Positions 3,547-62,675 of a stretch of DNA of 64,000 nucleotides are shown piece after piece. The position numbers were made by a program, and so were the translations under genes. How positions within the stretch are numbered: the first letter of the stretch is position 1; each line of letters opens with the position of its first letter. The notes below the pieces were generated by a model that searched no databases, had not been told where the DNA came from, and saw nothing but the letters and a program-made list of their open reading frames with translations. The DNA is from Eledone cirrhosa. Its lineage: Eukaryota. Where the stretch lies: positions 361,212,001 through 361,276,000 of the forward strand of contig OZ024743.1 of the NCBI GenBank assembly GCA_964016885.1, in the 5' to 3' direction.

Positions 3547-3738
<192 letters not shown>

Positions 3739-3912
3739 AAGAATTCATATCTAGTAACATATATATACATACAGATGCATATCAATCAATGCTAGCAAAT
3801 ATATAGGTTTTGTCTTAATAACATTGGGGTTCAATGCATGGGGTTGCAGAACAATAATAGAAGAGACGTAAAATAAGAAAATTATAAAATTAACTTGCTT
3901 ACTAAAATATCA

Positions 3913-3992
3913 CTTCCAACTAATTAGTTTCTGGAATGGAGTAAATATATTTTCCGAAGAAGATATTGACAAACATTCCGTCGTCAGGGAAG
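3913..3992 (-). ncRNA. Type I hammerhead ribozyme (array A, inverted copy)
   Basis: Reverse complement: CTTCC-CTGACGA-cGGAATG...CATTCCa-GAAAC-TAATTA-GTT-GGAAG; core intact. Confidence 0.8.
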
Positions 3993-4936
3993 TCTATTCT
4001 CATATAAGTTTCCAGGCAAAGCGAGGAGTCTGGAAATTTATTAAAAAATAATTCAGTGGATAGGAAATAGCAAAGCGTGGACTGAATTCCTAGCCATTGA
4101 GAAAATCACTGCCTCTGCGCCTGTGGCAAATTCAAAAAGAATCGAACACGTAACATCGAGGTCAATCAGTGGAAAGTGGTTTGCTAATAAGACAGCGGCC
4201 TGCCTACTACCATAGCAGCAGTCATGGCCAATATTGCTGGACAAATAATTTGGAGATAATAATAAAGAATTCATATCTAGTAATATATATATACATACAG
4301 ATGCATATCAATGCTAGCAAATATATAGGTTTTGTCTTAATATCATTGTGGTTCAATGCATGGGGTTGCAGAACAATAATATAAGAGACGTAAAATAAGA
4401 AAATTATAAAATTAACTTACTTACTAAAATATCACTTCCAACTAATTTATAAAACTAATTACATACTTTTCTTATTTTACTAATTAGTTGGAAGTGATAT
4501 TTTAGTAAGTAAGTTAATTTTATAATTTTCTTATTTTACGTCTCTTATATTATTGTTCTGCAACCCCATGCATTGAACCACAATGTTATTAAGACAAAAC
4601 CTATATATTTAATAGCATTGATATGCATCTGTATGTATATATATGTTACTAGATATGAATTCTTTATTATTATCTCCAAATTATTTGTCGAGCAATATTG
4701 GCCATGACTGCTGCTATGGTAGTAGGCAGGCCGCTGTCTTATTAGCAAACCACTTTCCACTGATTGACCTCGATGTCACGTGTTCGATTCTTTTTGAATT
4801 TGCCACAGGCGCAGAGGCAGTGATTTTCTCAATGTCTAGGAATTCAGTCTATGCTTTGCTATTTCCTATACACTGAATTATTTTTTAATAAATTTCCAGA
4901 GTCCTCGCTTTGCCTGGAAACTTATATGAGAATAGA

Positions 4937-5016
4937 CTTCCCTGACGACGGAATGTTTGTCAATATCTTCTTCGGAAAATATATTTACTCCATTCCAGAA
5001 ACTAATTAGTTGGAAG
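4937..5016 (+). ncRNA. Type I hammerhead ribozyme (array A)
   Basis: Stem I CTTCC/GGAAG, CTGACGA, stem II GGAATG/CATTCC, GAAAC, palindromic stem-loop III ACTAATTAGT, GUU triplet. Confidence 0.8.
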
Positions 5017-5454
5017 TGATATTTTAGTAAGTTAATTTTATAATTTTCTTATTTTACGTCTCTTATATTATTGTTCTGCAACCCCATGCATTGAACCACA
5101 ATGTTATTAAGACAAAACCTATATATTTGCTAGCATCGATATGCATCTGTATGTAAATATATGTTACTAGATATGAATTCTTTATTATTATCTCCAAATT
5201 ATTTGTCGAGCAATATTGGCCATGACTGCTGTTATGGTAGTAGGCAGGCCGCTGTCTTATTAGCAAACCACTTTCCACTGATTGACCTCGATGTCACGTG
5301 TTCGATTCTTTTTGAATTTGCCACAGGCGCTGAGGCAGTGATTTTCTCAATGTCTAGGAATTCAGTCTACGCTTTGCTATTTCCTATCCACTGAATTATT
5401 TTTTAATAACTTTCCAGAGTCCTCGCTTTGCCTGGAAACTTATATGAGAATAGA

Positions 5455-5534
5455 CTTCCCTGACGACGGAATGTTTATCTGTATCTTCTTCGGAAAATAT
5501 ATTTACTCCATTCCAGAAGCTAATTAGTTGGAAG
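5455..5534 (+). ncRNA. Hammerhead ribozyme, probably inactivated (array A)
   Basis: Same fold, but GAAAC is mutated to GAAGC at 5516-5520. Confidence 0.7.
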
Positions 5535-5976
5535 TGATATTTTAGTAAGTAAGTTAATTTTATAATTTTCTTATTTTACGTCTCTTATATTATTGTTCTG
5601 CAACCCCATGCATTGAACCCCAATGTTATTAAGACAAAACCTATATATTTGCTAGCATTGATATGCATCTGTATGTAAATATATGTTACTAGATATGAAT
5701 TCTTTATTATTATCTCCAAATTATTTGTCGAGCAATATTGGCCATGACTGCTGCTATGGTAGTAGGCAGGCCGCTGTCTTATTAGCAAACCACTTTCCAC
5801 TGATTGACCTCGATGTCACGTGTTCGATTCTTTTTGAATTTGCCACAGGCGCAGAGGCAGTGATTTTCTCAATGGCTAGGAATTCAGTCCACGCTTTGCT
5901 ATTTCCTATCCACTGAATTATTTTTTAATAAATTTCCAGACTCCTCGTTTTGCCTGGAAACTTATATGAAAATAGA

Positions 5977-6056
5977 CTTCCCTGACGACGGAATGTTTGT
6001 CAATATCTTCTTCGGAAAATATATTTACTCCATTCCAGAAACTAATTAGTCGGAAG
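5977..6056 (+). ncRNA. Type I hammerhead ribozyme (array A), GUC triplet
   Basis: CTTCC-CTGACGA...GAAAC-TAATTA-GTC-GGAAG. Confidence 0.85.
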
Positions 6057-6105
6057 TGATATTTTAGTAAGTAAGTTAATTTTATAATTTTCTTATTTTA
6101 CGTCT

Positions 6106-6154
<49 letters not shown>

Positions 6155-7724: not shown

Positions 7725-8354
7725 GTGCGTGTGTATGTATATATATGTGTGTGTTTGTGTGTGTGTGTATGTGTGTGTGTTTGTGTGTGTGTGCGTACGT
7801 GGGTGTAAGTGTGTGTATGTAGCTATATAGATGGAGATATAACTACTAGCCAACATCTTACTATCTACGTATCAGTTATTCTGTGTTTATTTTGTCTCCG
7901 TATGTATAAATATTCATATCCGTCATACAATATTTGACGTAAATGTCAAACATATGCGTGTTTTTGACAACCCAAATAATTTCACTTAAGTTCTGCTTCG
8001 TTTTAGTCTTATAAATTACACAGGCATAGAATTTAACAACCTTGTTAGGCACTGTCATGGCAGATAAGACAACAGTACTGTAGGTAAACATCAAAACTGT
8101 CTGAAACTTTTTCACTCTTTCAACAGCCGATGACCACAAAGATTTTGTATGTAATGGCAATGATGCAACATTATCATTTACACACCAACACCAACTCTTT
8201 CATTGACTGAATTGCTAACTATATAACTGATCAGGCAGTCAGCAAATATGCAAATCAGGCCGATCAGTCACTGTACTTTTTTTTTTTAAATGTCATATTT
8301 TCACTAGCTTTTTTAAATGTCATATATTTTCACTAGCAGTTGGCAGGTAAGCAG

Positions 8355-8397
8355 TATACTGATGAAGGGTAATCACCCAGAAACATTAGTGTCTGCA
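8355..8397 (+). ncRNA. Minimal type I hammerhead motif, slightly decayed (probable Penelope pLTR remnant)
   Basis: TATA-CTGATGA-aGGGTaatcACCCa-GAAAC-attagt-GTC-TGCA; stem I has one mismatch. Confidence 0.6.
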
Positions 8398-8568
8398 GTT
8401 CTGTTTACATGCTAACACAAGAGCAATAATGTAGGGGTCATTCAACTGATATGACTTAAAGAGTCTGTTTGCATAATTGCAAACGAATCGAAAATTATTA
8501 ATTATTAATATTCGAAAATATCAGATTACATATATTGTATTCAGCCATGTAGAGCGATAAACTATTTG

Positions 8569-8610
<42 letters not shown>

Positions 8611-9307
8611 AGTGTAACTTGGAGTTACTGCAGGTTCACCTCGGGTGTGCACTCGATGTTTAGGTTCACTTCTGTGTTGAGGTGTAGAGCTATACAGAGT
8701 GTATTGAAAGGATAACAAGGACGATTGGTTACTCCTTCATTACATTTATTGTTAAGTGACGCGCGTTTCGCCACTGATCAGCTCAAGTTTCGATCTGCAT
8801 CGATATTACCCGACTCATTAATCGGCAGCACGACGGACCCTTTAAAATGGTATAGGAAAATGAATACATGCTATGTGATAAAGTCAGAAGTTCATAAGTT
8901 GTACAATATGATTTTTTATGATTGGTGGAAAAGACAATGGGAATGTACTGGCCTGTAGTGTATGTGGGGTTGGATGTGGTGATAAGATGTTGGTGTCGGT
9001 CGCTGGTTGCGATGGGCTGGGTGTGGGGGTGGCGGATTGACTTCCGCCTGGAGTGTATGTGGGGGTGGCTGTGATGATAAGATGGTGGTGACGGTCGCTG
9101 ACTTGGATGGGCTGTGGTTTGGGGGTAGAGTATTGTCGGTAGACAGTTTGGCGTATATTTGTGGCTGGTTATTGTGTGGGGTGTGGTTGCCACAACAAAC
9201 CATTACCACAACCCAGAACGAAACCACATACACAACACAACCGCCCGCATGCCAGCTCCACACAGAACGCCACCAACCGGCAACGTGCCACCACACCGGT
9301 AACACCC

Positions 9308-9763
9308 ACCTGAAACTGCAAAAAACGGGCTGAATACCCACTAAACGGGGAGTGCCTCGTTAAAAATATTGTTTACCAGTGTGATGTCACAGCCGGCAAT
9401 AAAGAGTACTCAAATATAAGTGCGACCTCCACTACATTTAAGGAGCGCTGGTATAACCATAGAAACTCCTTTAAACATAGGCTGAAACTATCCCAAACCA
9501 GACTGGCCGACTTGATCTGGGACCTCAAGGCCAGGAACATCGAATCCCAGGTCACTTGGTCAGTCAAAAGACGCGTAACGCAACTCCCCAGTGACAGAAA
9601 ACACTGCAGATTATCCCTGGCCGAGGCGGCAGAAATAATTAAATTAAAATCTGCCATAAACTATAGGACGGACATAATTTTCAATTGCAGACACACCAGG
9701 CTGCACACATTTTCCGCACAAACATTCGGCGGAGGGCCGCACACTAACCATGACCCAGCATAA
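9308..9763 (+). pseudogene. Penelope GIY-YIG endonuclease domain
   Basis: T*NCKKRAEYPLNGECLVKNIVYQCDV...SATSTTFKERWYNHRNSFKH...LIWDLK...TWS...CRLSLAE...CRH. Confidence 0.85.
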
Positions 9764-10693
9764 TAATAACCACCTCTGCCCCGTCTCACCATCCCTCATC
9801 TCAGTGAATTTATGTTATTGTACTGCATGTAACCATTTGTAAGCCCGTATTTTGTATATCATGCCGCATACATCACCCCCACCAAAATTCACATCGCCAT
9901 ACACCCCTCATCTTTGCAACATTGTGTTCTATCTGTCCTCTCTGTCAGGTTTTACCTTGCAAACCATAGTAATATCTGATCCTGTAAATATAATGTCGAT
10001 CATATCACCCCATCGTTACCACCACCACCACCACCACCGCACACATCGTTATATGTCTACCATCCCACACCCGCAACCTTACTCCCCCATGTTCCCTCTG
10101 TCTACCCTAACTTACAACCCCACGCAAAATTCGATCCTGTAAATGTACTGTTGCACGCACCACCACCGCCCCCACTAGATACATCCACATACTTCAACAA
10201 TCACTAACATCATTAACATCACCAACACATATCCCTCACTCACAGAACGACTGTGTTACATCTGCCCTCTCCGTATGCTTTACCCTGTAACCCACCGTAA
10301 CATCTGATGATGTAATCTTATTGTTGAACATATCACCCCATCACCACCACCACCACCATGACCACAACACACATCGCTATACGCCCACAAACTTTTTCCC
10401 CCGTGTTCCCTATGTCACCTTTTATCCAGTAACCGATCGTATTATTCGATCCTGTATATTTGTGTCGCTCACAACTCCACCACCGACACCACAAGGCACA
10501 ACTCCATACCTCAACATTCATTAACTTCATTAGCATCGCCAACACATACCTTCCCTCTCAAACCAACGCAAGTGTGTGTGTCTGTGTGTAAGTATTTATT
10601 TGTGTATATATGTGTGCGCATATATATACATATATATATATATAATATTAATTCAAAATATTAACAAAATAGATATTCTTGTGATCAAGTATA

Positions 10694-10748
10694 TTTTATT
10701 ATACATATTTCAGAGTTAACTTCAACAGTACGTCCTCATCAGATAAAA
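10694..10748 (-). ncRNA. Type I hammerhead motif
   Basis: Reverse complement: TTTTAT-CTGATGA-ggacgtactgttgaagttaactct-GAAAT-atgt-ATA-ATAAAA; stem II weak. Confidence 0.55.
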
Positions 10749-11535
10749 ATAAGATGATGCATGACATACCCTGACATATCTGTGTGTACGTGTATGTGTG
10801 TATATCTATATGTGTATGTGTGTGTATGTATGTGTATGTCTATATGTACAACAGCATCTCCGTTGGCTCGCACCCTCCCTCTATCTTTGTACTACGCCAC
10901 CCCCAAAGATACTCCCACCTCTATATATATATCCACACGCGCGCATGCACATATATGTGTGTGTACATATGCATATAGATATATGTACCTGTGGATGTAT
11001 GTGGGCGCGTGTATGTGTGTGTATATAAATGTGTATGTATATATGCCAGTACATATGCTCATGTATATGTATACAACGTATTTGTCAGACTAAGAGTGTC
11101 TAGATATGTATCTCCCCATGGACTTGACACCACCAACACACCCACCACACCACCACAAACACCACTACCATAAACAACAACACCACAACAACACCCCACG
11201 CAAATAACCGGCCACACATATACGCCAAACTGTCTACCGACAATCCACGACCCCAACACCACAGCCCATCCAAGTCAGCAACCGTCACCACCATCTTATC
11301 ATCACATCCACCCCCTTATACACTACAGGCAAAAGTCAATCCGCCACCCCCACATCACAGCCCATCACAACCAGCGACCGTTACCAACATCTTATCACCA
11401 CATCCACCCTCATTACACTACAGGCCAATACATTCCTATTGTCTTTTCCACCAATCAAAACAAATGATATTGTACAACTTATGAACTTCTGACTTTATCA
11501 CATAGCATGTATTCATTTTCCTATACCATTTTAAA

Positions 11536-11622
11536 GGGTCCGTCGAGCTGCCGATAATTGAGTCAGGTAAGATCGATACAGATCGAACCTTGAGCTGATC
11601 AGTGGCGAAACGCGCGTCACTT
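11536..11622 (+). ncRNA. Hammerhead-like fold with variant core CCGUCGA in the Penelope pLTR
   Basis: GGGT-CCGTCGA-long stem II (GCTGCCGAT...ATCAGTGGC)-GAAAC-GCGC-GTC-ACTT; inverted copy at 8754-8840 has CCGTCGT. Confidence 0.45.
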
Positions 11623-11689
11623 ACCAATAAATGTAATGAAGGAGTAAACAATCGTCCTTGTTATCCTTTCAATATATATATATATATGT

Positions 11690-16559: not shown

Positions 16560-16908
16560 TATTCAAACAGAATTTAAAACGATAAGTTCTTGTTCTTGAA
16601 TATGTCACTATCTATAAAACAACTTTTGTATTTTATCTGATGAGTACGTACCAAAAAATGTTGGTATCCTTTAAATATATACAATAAAATAAATATGGTT
16701 TTATAAAGATAGTTTCCATTTATATATAAAATATAAGATAAAATAAAGTAACAGTAATGCACTGGGTAATTGCTGGCCTTGTGCCTAAAGTAGAAACAAT
16801 TATATATATTTCAAGGATACCAACATTTTTTGGTACGCACGCATCAGATAAAATACAAAAGTTGTTTTATAGATAGTGATATATTCAAGAACAATTCTGT
16901 TTGAATAT
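16560..16908. repeat. Inverted pair of decayed HHR-bearing segments enclosing a SINE 3' end
   Basis: 16560-16681 is the reverse complement of 16803-16908; CTGATGA...TAAAT in the left arm and CTGATGC...GAAAT in the right arm; SINE tail at 16753-16802. Confidence 0.7.
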
Positions 16909-18647
16909 ATAAATGGCAATTTCTGTCTGTGTGTAGCCAGTTGTCGTCTAAACTAGTGATCCGATCCTGCTGAAACATTACACACATGTTAAGAAACAGG
17001 ATTCGCTAATTGGATTTCAATAAAAATCAATAATGGAACCCCTGCGGACATTAAACCCTCCCTCACATTACTCGCCTTCCTGCTCCCGCAAGTATGTCCT
17101 CCAAAACGATGCAACGACTTATTTATTTTGTTTTTTCTTCATTCTGTAGAGAAAAAGAAAGAGGAGATGAGAGAGAGGAGATAAGAGAGAAAGAGAGGCG
17201 ATGAGAGGGAGAGGATAAGAGAGAGAGATGGATGAAGGAGAGAGAGAAAGAAAGCCAAAGAAAGAGAGAGGGGGGATTAGGGAAGAGAGAGAAGGAAAAC
17301 AGAAAAATGATAGCATAGTTCGATAACTAACATTTATTTATTTATTTTTTAAACGCTTCTTAACTAACTACTTTCTTAGCTTTACTTCTCTTTCTCTCTC
17401 TCTCTTTCACAAAAGTCGTAATGAGACTGTGTGTGTATGTGAGCGTGTTCACGCACGCACGTGTGTCTCGACGTTCTTAAATTAGAGACAGGTGTGTGTG
17501 TGTGTGTGTTTTTATCACCGTACTTAAGTTGGAGACATATATATCCCAGTCTACTGTCTCATGTGTATATATATATATATATATATATGAAGAAAAAAGG
17601 AAAGGTTGTATGTGACACCTCTATCTACTAGTAATATTAACAAAATCCATTTCAAATCACAGCAAAGTCTTACACACACGAACACACACACATGCATGTC
17701 ATGGAAGCCACTATAACTGTTGGTGTATCTAAAAGAAATAGAAAAAAAATCTCCCTCAAACAAGATCCTACTGCCATAGGGGAATAAATTGGTGAAACTA
17801 CAGTGTAAAAATGTTAATTGACCCAAGCTCTGCGGCACTTTGGGCCAAGGAGGGTAACCTTCCCAAATATCGGTCGCTCTCCGACAGGATTGTTGTTGCA
17901 CCCATAGCAATGGAGATTTCTGGTGTCCGTGGCTTTAGGGCTACCTCCCAACTCACCAGCATCGGCACAGAGTTGGCTACCCACAGGGGTGAACCCCGCA
18001 AGCCGGAATGGATTTATCATCGCGTTTCCCCCACTATCCTCTATTCCGACGACCACCGGGCCTGCAGGGCGGCCAGTTCGTGGGCCCACATTTCCTCATA
18101 ATAGTGAATGACGGGGAGTTCGGGAGTGGTGTAGGCAGTGCCAGTAGCAGTTTGCTTTCTGGTGTATATGTATATATTTACCACACTTACACACATTCCA
18201 ATAAACATTACTAAATTACAGAAATGAGTAAGTAGATTCTTCATTAATTCATAAACAAATGTTAAATTTATTATTTTATTTTATTTTATTTATGCTTCTT
18301 AAATAGCCTTCGCATTTTGCTTGAATTTCCTAGGTCCGGATTGTGCAAAAAAAAAAGGATAAATAAAATCAAAATTTCTATCTTTTTTGTTATGCTCTTT
18401 TCACTGACAACATACCTAATGGTTTTTCCAAGTGCGTAGCATTATATATGATGACTGTAATAGGGAGCAGTATTAAACAAATCACCACTGGACAAAACTA
18501 ATATTATTTTAATCTACATTGTTTGCTTTAAACAAACGGCAATAAATATTCTGCTATAATTCCTACTTTAGTTAAAATTCAGATATCATATTTCAATGGT
18601 CAAATATTGTAAACTCAATCACTGGGAATCACTGGGTAGCTCAGCTA

Positions 18648-18648
<1 letters not shown>
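16905..18648 (+). mobile_element. Non-autonomous Helitron with internal insertions
   Basis: 5' ATATATAAATGGCAATTTCTGTCTGTGTG resembles the start of the 2485 element; 3' decayed hairpin plus CTAG|T. Confidence 0.5.
17805..18110 (+). pseudogene. 3' restriction-like endonuclease fragment of a CRE-like non-LTR retrotransposon
   Basis: SAALWAKEGNLPKYRSL...APIAMEISGVRG...IGTELA...GEPR..EW; homologous to 44765-44990. Confidence 0.65.
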
Positions 18649-18711
<63 letters not shown>

Positions 18712-18756
18712 GACGTCAAATAGGAAAATTATAAAAATCAACTTTCTAAACTTTCA

Positions 18757-18837
18757 CTCCAACTAATTAGTTACTGTAAGGGAATAAATATGGTTACCGA
18801 ACGGAACCATAAAGAAAATCCTTACGTCATCAGGGAG
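18757..18837 (-). ncRNA. Hammerhead ribozyme, mutated (array B)
   Basis: CTCC-CTGATGA-cGTAAGG...CCTTACa-GTAAC-TAATTA-GTT-GGAG (GAAAC changed to GTAAC). Confidence 0.65.
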
Positions 18838-19640
18838 TCTATTCTCAGCTAAGTTCCCAGGCAATGCGTGGACACAGGGAACTTATACAAAAATAATTCA
18901 GTGAATGGAAAAAAGCGAGCGGGGACTCAATTCCAGGACATTGAAACAATCACTGCCTACTTGGTCCGTGGCAAATTCAGAAGAATCAATCACGTGACAC
19001 TGAGGTTAATCAGTGAGGAGTGGGGTGCTAATAAGACAGGAGCCTGACTACTACCATGAACCATAGCAGTAATTTCGGCAATTTTTTGCTAAACAAATAA
19101 TTTGGAGATAATTATAAAGAATGATGACGTAAGGATTTCTCTATGGTTCCGTTCGGTAACCATATTTATTCCCTTACAGAAACTAATTAGTTGGAGTGAA
19201 ATTTTAGTAAGTTGATTTTTATAATTTTCTTATTTTACGTCTTTCATATAATCGTTCTGCATCCTCTTGCATTGAACCACAAAGTTAATAAGACAAAACC
19301 TATATATGTACTAGCATAGGTATGCATCTGTATATATATGTTGGTAGATATACTAATTCTTTATAATTATCTCCAAATTATTTGTTGAGCAAAAATTTGC
19401 CGAAATTACTGCTATGGTTCATGGTAGTAGTCAGGCTCCTGTCGTATTAGCACCCCACTCCTCACTGATTAACCTCAGTGTCACGTGATTGATTCTTCTG
19501 AATTTGCCACCGACCAAGTAGGCAGTGATTTTTTCAATGTCCTGGAATTTAGTCCCCGCTTGCTATTTTCCATCCACTGAATTATTTTTGTATAAGTTCC
19601 CTGTGTCCCCGCATTGCCTGGGAACTTAGCTGAGAATAGA

Positions 19641-19721
19641 CTCCCTGATGACGTAAGGATTTTCTCTATGGTTCCGTTCGGTAACCATATTTATTCCCTT
19701 ACAGAAACTAATTGGTTGGAG
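19641..19721 (+). ncRNA. Type I hammerhead ribozyme (array B)
   Basis: CTCC-CTGATGA-cGTAAGG...TATGGTT/AACCATA inner hairpin...CCTTACa-GAAAC-TAATTG-GTT-GGAG. Confidence 0.8.
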
Positions 19722-19867
19722 TGAAATTTTTGTAAGTTGATTTTTATAATTTTCTTATTTTACGTCTGCATCCTCTTGCATTGAACCACAAAGTTACTAA
19801 GACAAGACCTATATATTTACTAGCATAGGTATGCATCTGTATATATATGTTGGTAGATATACTAATT

Positions 19868-19918
<51 letters not shown>

Positions 19919-20079
19919 TATATTTGGGGAGGGTCATGTTGTTATACAATTGCCAGAAATATATAATAAAATACACTCACTGTCTGGTTTGGGCTGGGTT
20001 TTCCTTCCGTATATTTTATGCCACTCTGTTTCAACACATGATTTCATAACATAAACCTTGCAAAACAAATTCATCGACG

Positions 20080-20138
<59 letters not shown>

Positions 20139-57000: not shown

Positions 57001-59425
57001 CTAGCAGCCGTACCCGGCGTTGCCCGCGTGTAAGTCTACCATTAGTAAATCATTTTTTTAAGAGAAAACAACGTATCATGAACCTCCCCAAAAATCATTT
57101 ATTTTTCACCGTGAGAAGTATGTGTTGTTCGATGTAAAAACGGTAAAATGTTATGGCATATGAAAGGTGAATGAGTGTAAAAGTGTGAGGTTGACGCGGT
57201 TAAGCTCCAAACGCGAACTATGCCACACGGAAGTCAGCAGCCCAAAAGTGAGTCACATGGAATTTATGACAATAATGTGGGATGCTTGGCAATTCCGGGA
57301 CTGAAGTCGTTGCGGGATGACGGAGATAATGTATGGCGACTTTGAGTGAAAGGTACAAATGAGGGAGGGTGCCATACGTTTGCTACAGTAGAAACATTTA
57401 AATTTTTCGTTATGCATTGCGTATATGTAGGCATTGTAATGATTTATGTAGTTTGAAATGCTTACCATTCTGTATAGTTGTGGCTGCCAATAGAAACTGT
57501 GACGTTGCTTTCCTTAGACTGATTGCAGTGACATAGACCAAATATGAAGGACGCTCAAAATTCTTCAACACAAATTCTGCACGAACCTCGATTGCAAAAG
57601 TAACAGAGAATAACGAATAGCGATTATTACGTCAAAAGAAAAATGCTGAAGCAACTTCTATTGCACGAGATGCAGAAAACGAAACGCAACGTTCGACGCG
57701 TCAGCAAATAAATTCTGAGGCAACTGCTGCTGCTTGAGGTGCAGAAAACGATTCTTAACCCTCACTGCGACAGAAGGCAAATATTGTTGGCAACGTCTAT
57801 TGCAGGAGATGCAGAGAACGAACCACAGCGTTCATTACGGCGGCATAGAAATGCTGAGGCAACTTCCGCAGTTCAAGCTGCTTCAACCGAAACAAAGCAT
57901 CAACTGCGGCAGCAAAGAATTGTGAGTCAATGTCTGCTGTTTGAGCTGTATCAACCGAAACACGGCGTCAACTGCGGCAGCAAAGACATCTGAATCAACG
58001 TCTGCTGCACCCGCTGGTGAATCTATGGGAAACTGGCTCAACCAACCAGAGGGGAACGTGCATTTCAATACCGTGAAGCTCAAAGTTGTCACAACGTTTA
58101 CAGTCGAAAATGTATGGTGTTATGAATTTCAAAAAGGCAATATGTCTACAATTTGTTAATTATTGAAAGCAGCGAGGTATTTGATTGTTAGAAGACGGTT
58201 TGTGTCGTCGTGTTGATTACAGAACTTCTTGGTACACAATGTTTGTGGTTTTACCGTTTGGAGCAAATGCATAAAGGTTTCTTTTGCTTCCCACTCTGGA
58301 ACATCCAGCGTATAGCTGACCGTGCGAAAAGCATGGCTCTTCTAGGTTTATTCCCGCGACGGACAATATTTGCCCCTGAGACTTATTTATCGTCATAGCC
58401 AAACTACAACGAACTGGAAACTGGAGCCTCCTAAATGAAAAGGGGATCTCTGATGTTGACGGACAAAGGGGAATCCTTGGGATAAATACATTTTCCCCCT
58501 TTCCACACCTCGAGAGAATCGTCGGCTCGATCAAGTTTTGCATTAGTTTATTTTCTGTAAGGCGCGTGCCGTTGAAGAATGTTGGTGGGTGTAGATTCCT
58601 CAAAAGCATAATTGGGCATCCTTGCTTAAATTCCAATGGATGAGATGGCAACCCGGAGGGTGGGGGTCAATGAGTTAAGAAACTCAATTGGGTAGTTAAT
58701 GGGGTCTGTGACTGTATCGATGGACTTGTATGTACACGATGCTGTAGGAAGATATTAAAGCAGTTGTCCGTTGATTTTTTCGACAGTCCCATTTTTCGGA
58801 GCCAGTATTGCCCTTTCGCACAGCCAGTTTGGATTTTGGTAGTTAGTACTCAACTCAGGGAATACTGCATCTGTCAAGTCGTCAACACTGTCGCCTAAAG
58901 TGCAGACCGGTTCGAGGGAGATTTTTTCATCTTCATCAAGCGGCACTTTGCCGTTCCCAAGTGTCAATAGGTTGGTAGCAAAATTTGATGACACTTGGTC
59001 ACCAAGCATCCCAGCTCTCATGTTCGTAGAGAGCGTTAATGTTGTGACATAACGCCAAAGCGGAAATGACTTTAAGCATGCTCGAATAGCATCAGCCCTT
59101 GTTCCTTTGAGAATAACAGGGAGAGTTTGTCTAAAACTCCGGTTAAAAGGACAGTCACGCCTCCCATGTGATCCTGGGATTCTCTTATGTCTCTTAAAGT
59201 CTTGTCCAGTGCCTCCAAAGCTCCTTTATGACCCATGGTACATTCGTCCCAAACTATAAGTTCACCCCTTTTAAGTAGTTCTGCCTTTTCTGATCATTTA
59301 GTAATATTGCAGCAGTGTGTGCCATTTGCTGTTATATTGCGGGGGAGTTTGAAGGCTGAATGTGCTGTCCTGCCCCCCAGGAAGCAAGGCTGCAATACCG
59401 GAAGACGCAACAGCAAGTGCTATGT
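57001..59425 (-). mobile_element. Helitron 3' part with a decayed RepHel helicase
   Basis: Reverse-complement end GCGGGCAACGCCGGGTACGGCTGCTAG at 57001; helicase remnant upstream. Confidence 0.85.
58217..59425 (-). pseudogene. Pif1-family helicase domain of Helitron RepHel
   Basis: AVASSGIAA, RTAHSAFKLP, IVWDECTM, NMRA, RAILAPKN, PIMLLRNL, RLQFPVR..AMTINKSQGQ, FSHGQLY..CSRV; frameshifts. Confidence 0.92.
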
Positions 59426-59493
59426 GTCTGTGTTGTCGAACCTTGGCAAGGAGAAGTTGTATGACAAAAGTCTTCCCTTATATACATATATAT

Positions 59494-62397
59494 GATGGCT
59501 CCCTTCTGTCTCGATAGACAATGGATTGCGCCAAGGGGGGGGGTAGTTTGATGATAAGCAGCGTCTGCTGTGACTGAACAGCACAATTCTGGAGTGGCAG
59601 TCTTTGGCACAGTTGCTGAACGTGAAGGTCGATGGGTACGCCTGGGTTGTTGCTGCAGGGGCCTTCCTCTCGTCTCGCCTGTTTGACCACAGCAGCGTCC
59701 TCCTTTCCTCACCCGGGGAAACGCCTTTCTTCACTGTCCGATGCCAGGCAGAGCGGTCAGCTGCTGTCTCCTCCCAGGTGTCCACACCGATGTCCGTAGT
59801 CCTCAGGTCGCGTTTGCACACATCTCTGTATCGCAGCTGTGGACGTCCTATGGATCGGGATCCTGTGGTGAGCTCACCGTACAAGATGTCTGTAGGAATG
59901 CCACCGTCTGCATGCGGCGGACGGGCCCGAGCCAGAGCAGTCGCCTCTGCTTGAGGAGGGTGTACATGCTTGGCATATTTGTCTGGTTTAAGACGTCTAC
60001 GTTTGGTACACGGTCCTTCCAGGAGATGCCAAGGATCCGTCGAAGACACCGCATGTGAAAGCTGTTGAGCGGCGTTCTTGTCGGACGTACAGTGTCCAGC
60101 TCTCGCTGCCGTAGAGTAGGGTGCTCAGTACGCAGGCTCGGTACACTGCGATCTTGGTGGTTATAGTGAGCATGTTGTTTTCCCACACTCTCCTGGCGAG
60201 CTTAGCCAAGGCAGCAGCAGCTTTACCGATCCGCCTGTTCAGCTCCGGATCGAGAGACAGGTTGCGAGCGACTGTCGATCCCAGGTAAGTGAACTCATTC
60301 ACCACTTGCAAGCCGTGGAGGCCGACACTGGTGCAGGGGATCTCTCCGACATCCTGGCCCATGATCTCCGTCTTTTTCAGGCTGATGGTAAGCCCGAACT
60401 CTTGGCAAGCGAGTGCCAGGGAGCTGACCAACCTCTGGAGACCTGGCTGGGTCTGGGATGTTAGGGCGGCATCGTCAGCAAAAAGGATCTCCCTGATCAG
60501 CACCTGCCGTACTCTGGTCTTGGCCCTGAGGCGCGTGAGGTTTAATAGCCCTGGTGTGGAGGAACACTCCGTCGTCGGATTTCCTGAAGGCATAGGACAG
60601 GACAAGGGAGAAGACAATTCCGAAGAGCGTCGGCGCCAGGAACAACCCTGTTTCACTCCACTCTGGATGGGAAACGGCTCTGAGGGTGATGCGTCAAACT
60701 GCACCGTCCCCTGCATACCGTCGTCAAAAGATTGATGAGTTTCAGCAGTTTTGGAGGGCAACCGTTCCTCCCCAGAAGCGCCCTCCCCCGCTGACTGAGT
60801 CGAAAGCCTTGGCCAGGTCGACAAAAGCCACATAGAGGGGCTGCCTCTGCTCTCGACGCTTCTCTTGAAGCTGTCTGAGTGAGAAGATCATGTCGATTGT
60901 CGACCTCTCCGCCCTAAAGCCGCACTGGGACTCGGGGTACACACGCTCTGCAAGTATTTGCAACCTCTTCAGGACCACCCTGGCGAATGCCTTACCGATG
61001 GTGCTGAGCAGGGATGTGTCTCTGTAGTTGTTGCAATCGCTTCTGTCCCTTTTGTTTTTATATAGCGTGACAATGTTTGCATCTCGCATGTCCTTGGGGA
61101 CAGAGCTCTCCTCCCAGCACTGGCAGAGCAGCTCGTGGAGGTGGCCCAGAAGGGCTGCCTTCCCACACTGGATGACTTCCGCAGGGATGCCGTCTTGGTC
61201 TGGTGCTTTGCTCCGAGCGAGTGAGTCGATAGCTCTGCTCAGTTCCTCCTTTGTCGGGGGCAGGACAAGCTCCTCCATGAGAGGCAAAGCAGAAATGCCA
61301 GCGAGTGCAGACTTGGTGACCACATTCTCAGTGGAGTAGAGGTTCTGGTAATGCTAGGCCCACCTCTCCATCTGCCTTGCTCGGTCTTTGATGACTTCGC
61401 CATCCTTGGACTTCAGTGGAGTGATCTTGCTGGCAGTGGGCCCGAATGCTTTTTTCATCCCCTCGTACATCCCTTGCACGTTACCACTGTCAGCACAGGA
61501 CTGGATGTTCTGGCATAGGTTCTGCCAGTATGTGTTGGCGCATCGTCTGGCCGTCCTTTGGGCGTTGCTTCAGGCTCTTCTCAGAGTAGCCAGGTTCTTG
61601 TCCGATGAGTCGCGCTTATAGTTGACTAGTGCTTCCCTCTTGGCAGCAATAACAGGCTCCATCTCAGGCAGGTGAGCTTCAAACCAGTCTTGGTTTTTCC
61701 GCTCCTTCTTTCCCAGGGATAACATGGCTATTCTCCAAGTGGTGTTACGGATGAGCTGCCACCTCTCCTCGATGTGGCTGCGTGCTCTTTAAGGGCCTCC
61801 TCCATGCAGTAGGTGAATTCTGAGCGAAGCTCTGGGTTGGTTGCCCTGGCGGCGTTGAAGCGTGGGCGGCTTTTCCCTCCAGTGTGGTGAATCTTCTTTG
61901 GCGCCAGTCGGACCCTGCTGTACACCAGGGAATGGTCTGTATCACAGTCAGCACTGTGGAAGCTGCGCGTGAGAAGCACACTGCCGAGGTGGGCTCGCCT
62001 GGCGATGATCATATCTAGCTGGTGCCTGGCGTTGTGGCTTAGTCCTGAAGAATGTGTTGGAAATGCAGAGTTTCCGGTAAGAGCAAAGCTCTAACAATCT
62101 CTGGCCATTTTCATTCATCTTTCCTACGTCGCAGCGTCCAAGGCAATCTGGCCATGTCCTAAGGTCGGATCCCACCCTTGCGTTGAAATCGCCCAGCAGG
62201 AAGACGGGCTCCGACCCTAGTATCTGGTTGATGGTGGCGTCGAGCTCCTCATAGAACCGGTCTTTTATTTCTTGAGGAGAGCAGAGTCTTGGGGCATAAA
62301 CGCTAACTATGTTTACCTCCCCCGATGATGTTGAAAGGCTAACAGATAGGACGCGCTCCGACCCATTTGAGGGAGGGACTATCATGGGGAGTAGCCG
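59494..62397 (-). mobile_element. RTE (BovB-like) LINE, nearly full ORF, frameshifted
   Basis: VSVYAP, LLGDFNARVG, DTDH, KAPDQDGIPAE, ESQCGFR, GVKQGC, LFADD, FTYLGS, LLYGSE, LYGEL, C-terminal CAKDCHSR..L.SH; (TA)n at both ends. Confidence 0.95.
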
Positions 62398-62430
<33 letters not shown>

Positions 62431-62675
62431 ATACTTTTGGAGGGTCATGTTGCCAATAAGAAACATACACACCAGTTGCTTTCACTCTTATATATATATA
62501 TATTTTCCCAATCTCATACATCAATCTTAATTTATTTTTCATATGTTGATTTGAAACTTCACTATTCACAAGTGTTTTTTAAGCTTCATATCATATCTCC
62601 CTATTTTATCTGATGAGAACGCAGATATCATCCCATAATAAAATTCTTGGAACTCTTTTAACCATCTTTTGATCT

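Follow-up and report, generated by a model that had tools for sequence, protein, structure and literature searches.

An apparent non-LTR retrozyme in Eledone cirrhosa, likely copied by Hydra-clade Penelope-like elements

Two insertions of a hammerhead repeat

The window (the whole 64,000-nt stretch of DNA analysed here) carries two insertions of a tandemly organised repeat, insertion A (3733-6113) and insertion B (18703-19874), whose parts are listed in Table 1. Insertion B is a single insertion between two (TA)n runs and consists of an inverted segment followed by a plus-strand segment; the preliminary description had treated it as a plain array, but it comprises an inverted copy and one whole monomer with partial units on each side. 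The inverted segment ends at the +58 site within (TA)n and its hammerhead core reads GTAA in place of GAAA, while the truncated first hammerhead begins inside the core, without the 5' strand of stem I and the first core base. With one complete hammerhead only, insertion B is probably a dead copy. The repeat and its TA joint at 19250 were also present in sequencing runs X1 and X3, which come from one sample, possibly the source itself, and are silent on expression.

Insertion A belongs to another, related subfamily and has the same inverted-then-tandem build. Its three monomers were mutually 97.1% alike, with some variants shared in pairs, and the A and B monomers of the window showed 81% identity. 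An ATG-initiated ORF of 77 codons in A is absent from B, in agreement with the earlier statement that ORFs are not kept, and a protein-coding role for the repeat was rejected.

Table 1. Features of insertions A and B, in positions of the window
Feature	Position	Strand	Details
Insertion A, inverted 5' segment	3733..4447	-	terminus at the +173 site, in (TA)n
Insertion A, tandem array of three monomers (522, 518 and 522 nt)	4479..6113	+	terminus at the +58 site, in (TA)n
(TA)n target, left flank of insertion B	18649..18707	.	
Insertion B, inverted 5' segment	18703..19122	-	monomer positions 164-525, then 1-58
Insertion B, plus segment	19122..19874	+	positions 454-525, one whole monomer, positions 1-173
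Truncated first hammerhead of insertion B	19122..19192	+	positions 454-525
Whole B monomer, 525 nt	19193..19717	+	q1-q525, counted from the predicted cleavage site
Bulged hairpin of site 1, U-A type (GTTCT...A-TT-GAAC)	19254..19277	+	4 nt past the +58 end (19250)
Long-range helix, 5' arm	19284..19295	+	pairs with 19440-19451
22-pair hairpin between the two 3'-end sites	19303..19352	+	several compensated and wobble changes
Site-2 motif, C-G type (CTCC...G-TY-GAGC)	19371..19390	+	about 5 nt past the +173 end
Variable hairpin	19406..19430	+	remodelled by subfamilies, pairing retained
Long-range helix, 3' arm	19440..19451	+	pairs with 19284-19295
Putative masking segment	19456..19472	+	predicted to pair with q517-524 and q1-6, spanning the cleavage site
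Long hairpin upstream of the hammerhead	19583..19638	+	compensated pairs, some broken pairs
Type I hammerhead motif	19640..19722	+	only complete hammerhead of insertion B
Last partial monomer of B, q1-173 with a 16-nt deletion	19718..19874	+	terminus at the +173 site, in (TA)n
(TA)n target, right flank of insertion B	19871..19923	.	

The complete hammerhead of B contains CTGATGA (19645-19651), an unpaired C (19652), an extra A (19703) and GAAA (19704-19707). Stem I pairs ACTCC (19640-19644) with GGAGT (19718-19722), the counterparts in A being ACTTCC (4936-4941) and GGAAGT (5012-5017), and stem II, which holds an inner hairpin, pairs GTAAGG (19653-19658) with CCTTAC (19697-19702), the counterparts being GGAATG and CATTCC; all of the stems named in the preliminary description were found in both insertions where it had placed them. 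Stem III and its loop are palindromic, and cleavage is predicted after 19717. The core pattern occurs on one strand of the monomer only, and Rfam returned no ribozyme match at the gathering score over the whole window or at E ≤ 5 in 18500-20100. The core, loop III and a monomer length of 525 nt had been described as kept: one complete hammerhead is indeed present in B, but its loop III carries an A>G change and the other B cores are truncated or read GTAA, and monomer length is 518-535 nt in most subfamilies but 543-571 nt in one clade. Directly past stem I, the sequence GTAAGT (19206-19211) is retained in nearly all subfamilies; it resembles the splice donor consensus, and introns are frequent in Penelope leaders.

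Genomic copies, fixed 3' ends and Hydra-type hairpins

The exact stem III/cleavage motif matched 12,847 times (7,856 + 4,991) in the 3.0-Gb genome, a figure that tallies unit junctions and not insertions, against 0 matches for a reversed-pattern control; only 194 matches were found without the C closing stem II. From 269 fetched loci we obtained 151 whole monomers at 110 loci, which formed 19 clusters, 13 of them drawn from at least two loci, and the subfamilies (at least 13) showed 70-91% mutual identity. Monomers were 99.0% alike within an array versus 95.1% between arrays. Subfamilies c7 and c8 have damaged hammerhead cores, as seen in a long diverged array at about 152.49 Mb of G000:C1 (loci L103/L104).

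Among pattern-picked loci, 203 of 224 3' ends fell into two bins, 95 near +58 and 108 near +173; seven further ends lay at the end of the model and include profile misses running on to +58. All 3' ends were downstream of the cleavage site, 5' ends were spread, as after 5' truncation, and an inverted 5' part was found in 97 of 156 complete insertions (median length, 778 nt). The repeat shows the Penelope-like insertion pattern described in passages of PMC8557442, namely fixed 3' ends with a tail, 5' truncation and an inverted 5' copy, and the TA that follows 182 of the 203 main-site ends agrees with the (TA)n target of Hydra-clade Penelope-like elements (PLEs). Since no ORF combining a reverse transcriptase with a C-terminal GIY-YIG domain occurs within or joined to the monomers, we regard the repeat as a dependent of the Hydra clade and not as a member. 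Its units are tandem and non-coding, with a type I hammerhead in each (an extra-A variant without an Rfam match), and, as far as DNA can show, it appears to be an animal non-LTR retrozyme, that is, a non-coding Penelope-type retroelement.

No parent element was found when monomers were compared with 36 Hydra-type loci, when shared flanks were sought over all loci, or in the flanks of nine loci where a PLE adjoins a monomer, the adjoining PLEs being separate insertions. A motif-plus-ATG pattern occurred at chance level (279 versus 328 in the control). Of the >12,000 motif copies, about 300 loci were covered, and an ORF-bearing element carrying the hammerhead did not turn up among them. In some copies (L184, L120, L193, L217, L295, L253, L212, L072, L245) a (CT)n run separates the +173 end from (TA)n, which would fit slippage of the enzyme on CTCT at the start site. 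One inversion breakpoint lies at the stem III palindrome (L175:5262-5390).

Each 3'-end site lies 4-5 nt ahead of a motif, which reads GTTCT-stem-loop-A-TT-GAAC at q62-85 (site 1, in 122 of 151 monomers) and CTCC-loop-G-TY-GAGC at q179-198 (site 2, strict match in 129 of 151). The site-1 hairpin shows a G-C to A-U swap in subfamilies c7-c10; the site-2 motif folds weakly alone (-0.8 and -1.3 kcal/mol) and not as a bulged stem.

Two ORF-bearing families in the genome, H1 (L151; 861 open codons, uninterrupted at L151:2014-4596) and H2 (L175; broken), carry the Hydra marks of PMC8557442, section 11 (R-W-R, DKT, CxCX5C, CxxC and CxH). Pfam matched no family in either Hydra-type protein. Each has two TA-flanked 3' ends 93-105 nt apart, downstream of its own leader. 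In H2, 36 of 38 ends lay 4-11 nt ahead of its two CTCC..GTYGAG motifs; in H1, 12 of 17 ends lay 2-5 nt ahead of its CTCC..GTYGAG motif, at the second end, and the upstream end gave no pattern match. When the whole monomer was aligned locally with the H1 or H2 leader, the highest-scoring match fell on the motif in four of four comparisons; its score was significant against 500 shuffles for H2 (6-7/500) but not for H1 (108-244/500). The leader motif is all that H1 and H2 share with the monomer; the hammerhead and the rest of the sequence are not homologous.

The metagenomic Hydra-like set comprised 78 fetched loci, of which we kept the 61 whose leader reached about 100 nt or more. The one-pattern motif was found in 48 of the 61 leaders; the reverse strand gave 5, ORF interiors gave 0 and shuffles gave no more than 2. 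When both types were considered, 51 leaders had at least one motif and 33 had two, 54-82 nt apart, with the U-A type before the C-G type in 18 of these 33, the order seen in the monomer; 13 of 20 informative metagenomic 3' ends lay 0-8 nt upstream of a motif. Changes within the motif were compensated: the pair over the bulge is U-A in one type and C-G in the other, GTTC/GAAC in the monomer stands for GCTC/GAGC, and three instances have U-A for the closing G-C. In excerpts of published consensus sequences, judged by eye, Hydra-1_Ajap begins at the first motif and contains both and Hydra-1_Amil has the U-A type at its end, while the motif was not clearly seen in the Hydra-1_Obim leader.

From these positions, the motif is a candidate start signal for reverse transcription, with the hairpin presumably recruiting or positioning the Hydra enzyme, and the Hydra clade is the likely helper of the repeat, assigned by signal, target and end pattern and not by descent. 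The signal appears new to print as far as we could find: the hairpins are absent from the covered passages, section 11 and supplement rows of PMC8557442, and no description of the hairpin or of a cephalopod or Hydra retrozyme was found in excerpts of the literature searched, bioRxiv supplements and subscription papers lying outside that search.

Compensated pairing and a putative masking segment

The ribozyme fold of the repeat is under selection, as stem II pairing has been retained through four Watson-Crick pair types and stem I re-established after an insertion. Selection on RNA structure had also been claimed for helices outside the ribozyme, from paired differences between A and B. Because two subfamilies alone provide one event per pair and cannot show significance, we tested 13 subfamilies. 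In an R-scape-like G-test of single pairs with a tree-simulated null (71 monomers, at most 8 per subfamily plus the window copies, one copy with two deletions being left out), one of all pairs reached E = 0.05, and it is located in stem II. Among 141 thermodynamically proposed pairs, none of 127 outside the hammerhead passed versus 2 of 14 within it, the best outside pair being q99-252 (E = 0.13).

In an aggregate, held-out test, the fold of a single natural copy supplied the pairs and the 12 remaining subfamilies served for scoring, against a null that swaps partners among same-letter pairs and retains each column's history. Outside the hammerhead, 14-20 doubly changed, still-paired states were counted versus 4.1-9.5 expected (p = 0.001 in all seven plus-strand source folds, which share data and are not independent). 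Minus-strand folds gave 7-15 versus 3.0-8.3, weaker than plus in 7/7 and with p < 0.02 in 4/7. In a simpler count over 22 copies, 18 of 108 pairs and 57 cells were doubly changed; the shuffles, which take no account of relatedness, gave 12.9 and 19.1. Strand tests showed no G-U excess over A-C in the GU-forbidden pair set (7/7 not significant) and, in union sets, 25 versus 10 (p = 0.008) at one threshold and 32 versus 22 (p = 0.11) at another; a count of 37 versus 4 was disregarded as biased by plus-strand selection. Compensation keeping the structure outside the ribozyme is supported in aggregate, for the pair set and not for any single pair, so the covariation that the preliminary description had proposed to seek in a deep alignment came out mixed, positive over the set but negative for individual pairs outside the hammerhead.

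The B monomer folded more stably than its shuffles as a linear molecule (z = -5.1), and circular folds gave z values of -5.1 (B) and -2.9 (A) on the plus strand and -3.0 (B) and -1.6 (A) on the minus strand, with 40 shuffles each. The long-range helix contains two compensated pairs, q93-258 and q99-252. In the hairpin upstream of the hammerhead (GTTCCC at 19596, GGGAAC at 19620), one pair is compensated as described, but another is broken in the subfamily of B (T.T at q410-427 in c15 and c12). The variable hairpin, TACTGCTATG at 19407 and CATGGTAGTA at 19420, is present in B but was not lengthened there, as had been thought; it was shortened in A, because only c6 (the subfamily of A) and the sister subfamily c12 are without the insert and the tree places A in a nested position. 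The hammerhead region of B (19638-19717) shows 0.89 identity to c14 and 0.88 to c15, the rest of B being c15 (0.90-0.95), and several alignment columns split against the tree. From this mixed affinity and these columns, recombination between subfamilies is likely.

Averaged circular folds predict that q1-6 pairs with q264-269 and q517-524 with q272-279, so that the cut base alone is unpaired, and the predicted circle folds favour this mask over stem I in most monomers. In 14 of the 15 monomers the best junction duplex fell at the mask position, and 0-25 of 200 shuffles matched its strength. When the hammerhead fold was imposed, the cost was 1.8-12.5 kcal/mol in the 14 scorable monomers, of which eight had mask probabilities of 0.77-1.0, while those of c5, c7, c3 and the window's B copy were low. 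In the lineage of A, the 3' strand of stem I changed to GGAAGT, its 5' strand to ACTTCC and the mask to CACTTTCC (47/50 and 44/50 copies). In c12, copies with GGGAGT mostly have the new mask (3/5) and copies with GGAGT the old one (4/6), a wobble intermediate. The mask-junction pair q2-268 is among the compensated pairs, and the mask covariation reflects essentially one lineage's event. This segment, half a monomer away, is predicted to mask the cleavage site, and it could also splint ligation, since it would hold both ends of the cut monomer side by side. Besides a start hairpin that would be clade-wide in Hydra elements and is carried twice by the repeat, the covarying mask over the cleavage site is the second feature that we did not find in print.

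Relation to known elements and a proposed life cycle

The comparisons below refer to excerpts of the cited papers. Like the repeat, animal non-LTR retrozymes (PMC7229834; 10.64898/2026.07.22.740005) consist of non-coding tandem units with one type I hammerhead each in thousands of copies, and their mobilisation by PLEs has been proposed. The unit of 520-570 nt is larger than the about 170-400 nt of Cervera & de la Pena 2020 (PMC7229834) and lies within the 51-972 nt of Li, Clavereau & Pollet 2026 (10.64898/2026.07.22.740005), in which only one of nine predicted Xenopus retrozyme dimers was cleaved in vitro and eight were not. Most animal circles, with the exception of some mussel ones, are predicted to leave the ribozyme free, unlike those of plant retrozymes and viroids (PMC7229834), whereas the repeat has a covarying mask. 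In the portions of these two papers covered, we found no connection of animal retrozymes with a helper clade by way of a common cis signal, of the kind suggested here, and the portion of the Octopus vulgaris repeat annotation covered (PMC13282606) makes no mention of ribozymes. The mobiliser of animal retrozymes and the nature of the Penelope "tail" are stated to be open (PMC7229834; PMC8557442; 10.64898/2026.07.22.740005).

PLE hammerheads (PMC4209133) share with the repeat a long stem II, an invariant G10.1-C11.1, a palindromic helix III, an unpaired base between positions 9 and 10.1 (after A9) and families with compensatory changes; the repeat differs in the extra A between C11.1 and G12, before GAAA, and in covariation that reaches the remainder of the unit. 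Hydra-clade PLEs (Craig et al. 2021, PMC8557442) likewise target (TA)n, show 5' truncation and an inverted 5' copy and have a hammerhead followed by a "tail", and their leader hairpins follow the order found in the repeat and are placed alike with respect to the 3' ends, but the repeat has no ORF and its hairpins are 113 nt apart, versus 54-82 nt in the metagenomic leaders and 92 nt in H2. The one PLE studied in vitro, Poseidon PAc (Frangieh et al. 2024, PMC11167929), begins reverse transcription at two sites inside the template, downstream of the hammerhead, that match the genomic ends and bound the "tail", and the target is AT-rich; its AC-rich stem-loop lies inside the ORF and is non-homologous to the target, whereas the repeat has UAUA microhomology just ahead of a bulged hairpin and sites 115 nt apart. 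In plant LTR retrozymes and hammerhead viroids (PMC4918200), the ribozyme is predicted to be blocked in the circle by a complementary segment, as here, but the repeat is of type I and not type III, lacks an LTR/PBS/PPT organisation, has Penelope-type ends, and its mask comprises only 14-16 pairs.

We consider it likely that the repeat is a non-LTR retrozyme that ends just before two Hydra-clade hairpin motifs and is copied into (TA)n by a Hydra reverse transcriptase-endonuclease, which likely starts at the hairpins. Arrays would be transcribed into multimers, from which hammerheads, probably acting as dimers through the palindromic stem III, would cut out monomers. The segment q264-279 is predicted to pair with both ends so formed, which would keep them in place for ligation and afterwards prevent the circle from being cut again. 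The Hydra protein would nick (TA)n, bind hairpin 1 or 2 and use the UAUA immediately upstream for priming, which would produce the +58 or +173 end, as the end positions suggest. Copying round the circle or along a multimer would produce tandem units, with the observed 5' truncation and inversion, and each amplification round would select for folding, which would be why subfamilies differ by compensated pairs. The identity of only 97.1% among the A monomers argues against one circle copied repeatedly without later change.

A broader proposal, which we offer tentatively, is that a short bulged hairpin, conserved across phyla, positions the Penelope reverse transcriptases of the Hydra clade, the sister group of telomerase, on their RNA so that they start a few bases upstream, and that the retrozyme is a circular RNA parasite carrying both signal copies and a self-made splint that would ligate and then silence its own ribozyme. 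If true, a telomerase-related enzyme with (TA)n as its target would have in the hairpin a compact signal for template recognition and start. In unrelated Hydra-type elements, 3' ends are predicted by a 20-nt motif, of which the non-coding parasite has two copies. The pattern would also be useful for annotation, by assigning orphan repeats to the Hydra clade, and the masking helix would answer, for this retrozyme family, how an animal circle avoids cutting itself.

The same Hydra-dependent element might instead move as an uncleaved linear multimer, with the hammerhead a passenger or protein-assisted, no circle, and the mask keeping the RNA uncut. We judge this unlikely, although several observations fit it: Poseidon PAc inserts in vitro from unprocessed RNA, cleavage being dispensable (PMC11167929), 3' ends that all lie downstream of the cleavage site are equally explained by an uncut multimer, and the monomers of array A differ, with variants shared in pairs. 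The retention of stem II through its four pair types and the restored stem I argue for selection on the ribozyme fold, and related animal retrozymes accumulate as circles (PMC7229834). It is very unlikely that the compensated pairs stem from DNA-level events (template switching, inverted-repeat hairpin correction or satellite-type homogenisation) and not from RNA selection. The element inverts readily, also at the palindrome, the strand tests were mixed and minus-strand folds had some excess too, but compensation spans 150-265 nt (q93-258, q99-252, q2-268), the plus-strand excess was the larger in every fold, the hairpin motif of unrelated elements is strand-specific (48 versus 5 of 61) and the copies are dispersed single insertions with fixed ends. 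The view of the preliminary description, that these are endogenised copies of a viroid-like circle evolving by RNA-to-RNA replication, is extremely improbable: size, fold stability, the many subfamilies, a ribozyme masked in the manner of plant retrozymes and viroids (PMC4918200; PMC7229834) and the RNA-RNA replication raised as possible by those authors would suit it, but the copies are chromosomal insertions with the hammerhead core in one polarity only, the conserved outside hairpins match Hydra-type Penelope signals, and the divergence is ordered in genomic subfamilies with Penelope-type ends and signals, for which retrotransposition alone accounts. Assignment to the hammerhead viroids was also rejected, as these have no DNA form and bear ribozymes in both polarities, whereas the repeat has genomic copies (12,847 motif matches) with the core on one strand, and the Rfam E-value scan was empty for ribozymes.

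Related sequences occur elsewhere in the window. A 5'-truncated H1 element at 8608-11665 contains an inverted segment (8608-9310), a GIY-YIG fragment (9314-9763) and 95-96-nt repeats in both orientations; a first look at the genome gave about 51,500 candidates for the H1 endonuclease. An inverted pair of H2 leader fragments at 16570-16900 is accompanied by another hammerhead-like motif (core 16642), a related motif lies at 10742 on the minus strand, and a further minimal one, likewise with an A before GAAAC, at 8345-8400. LINE-type reverse transcriptase and helicase-like fragments, judged by eye, were located at 35094-37011, 58217-59225 and 59420-62481, all on the minus strand.
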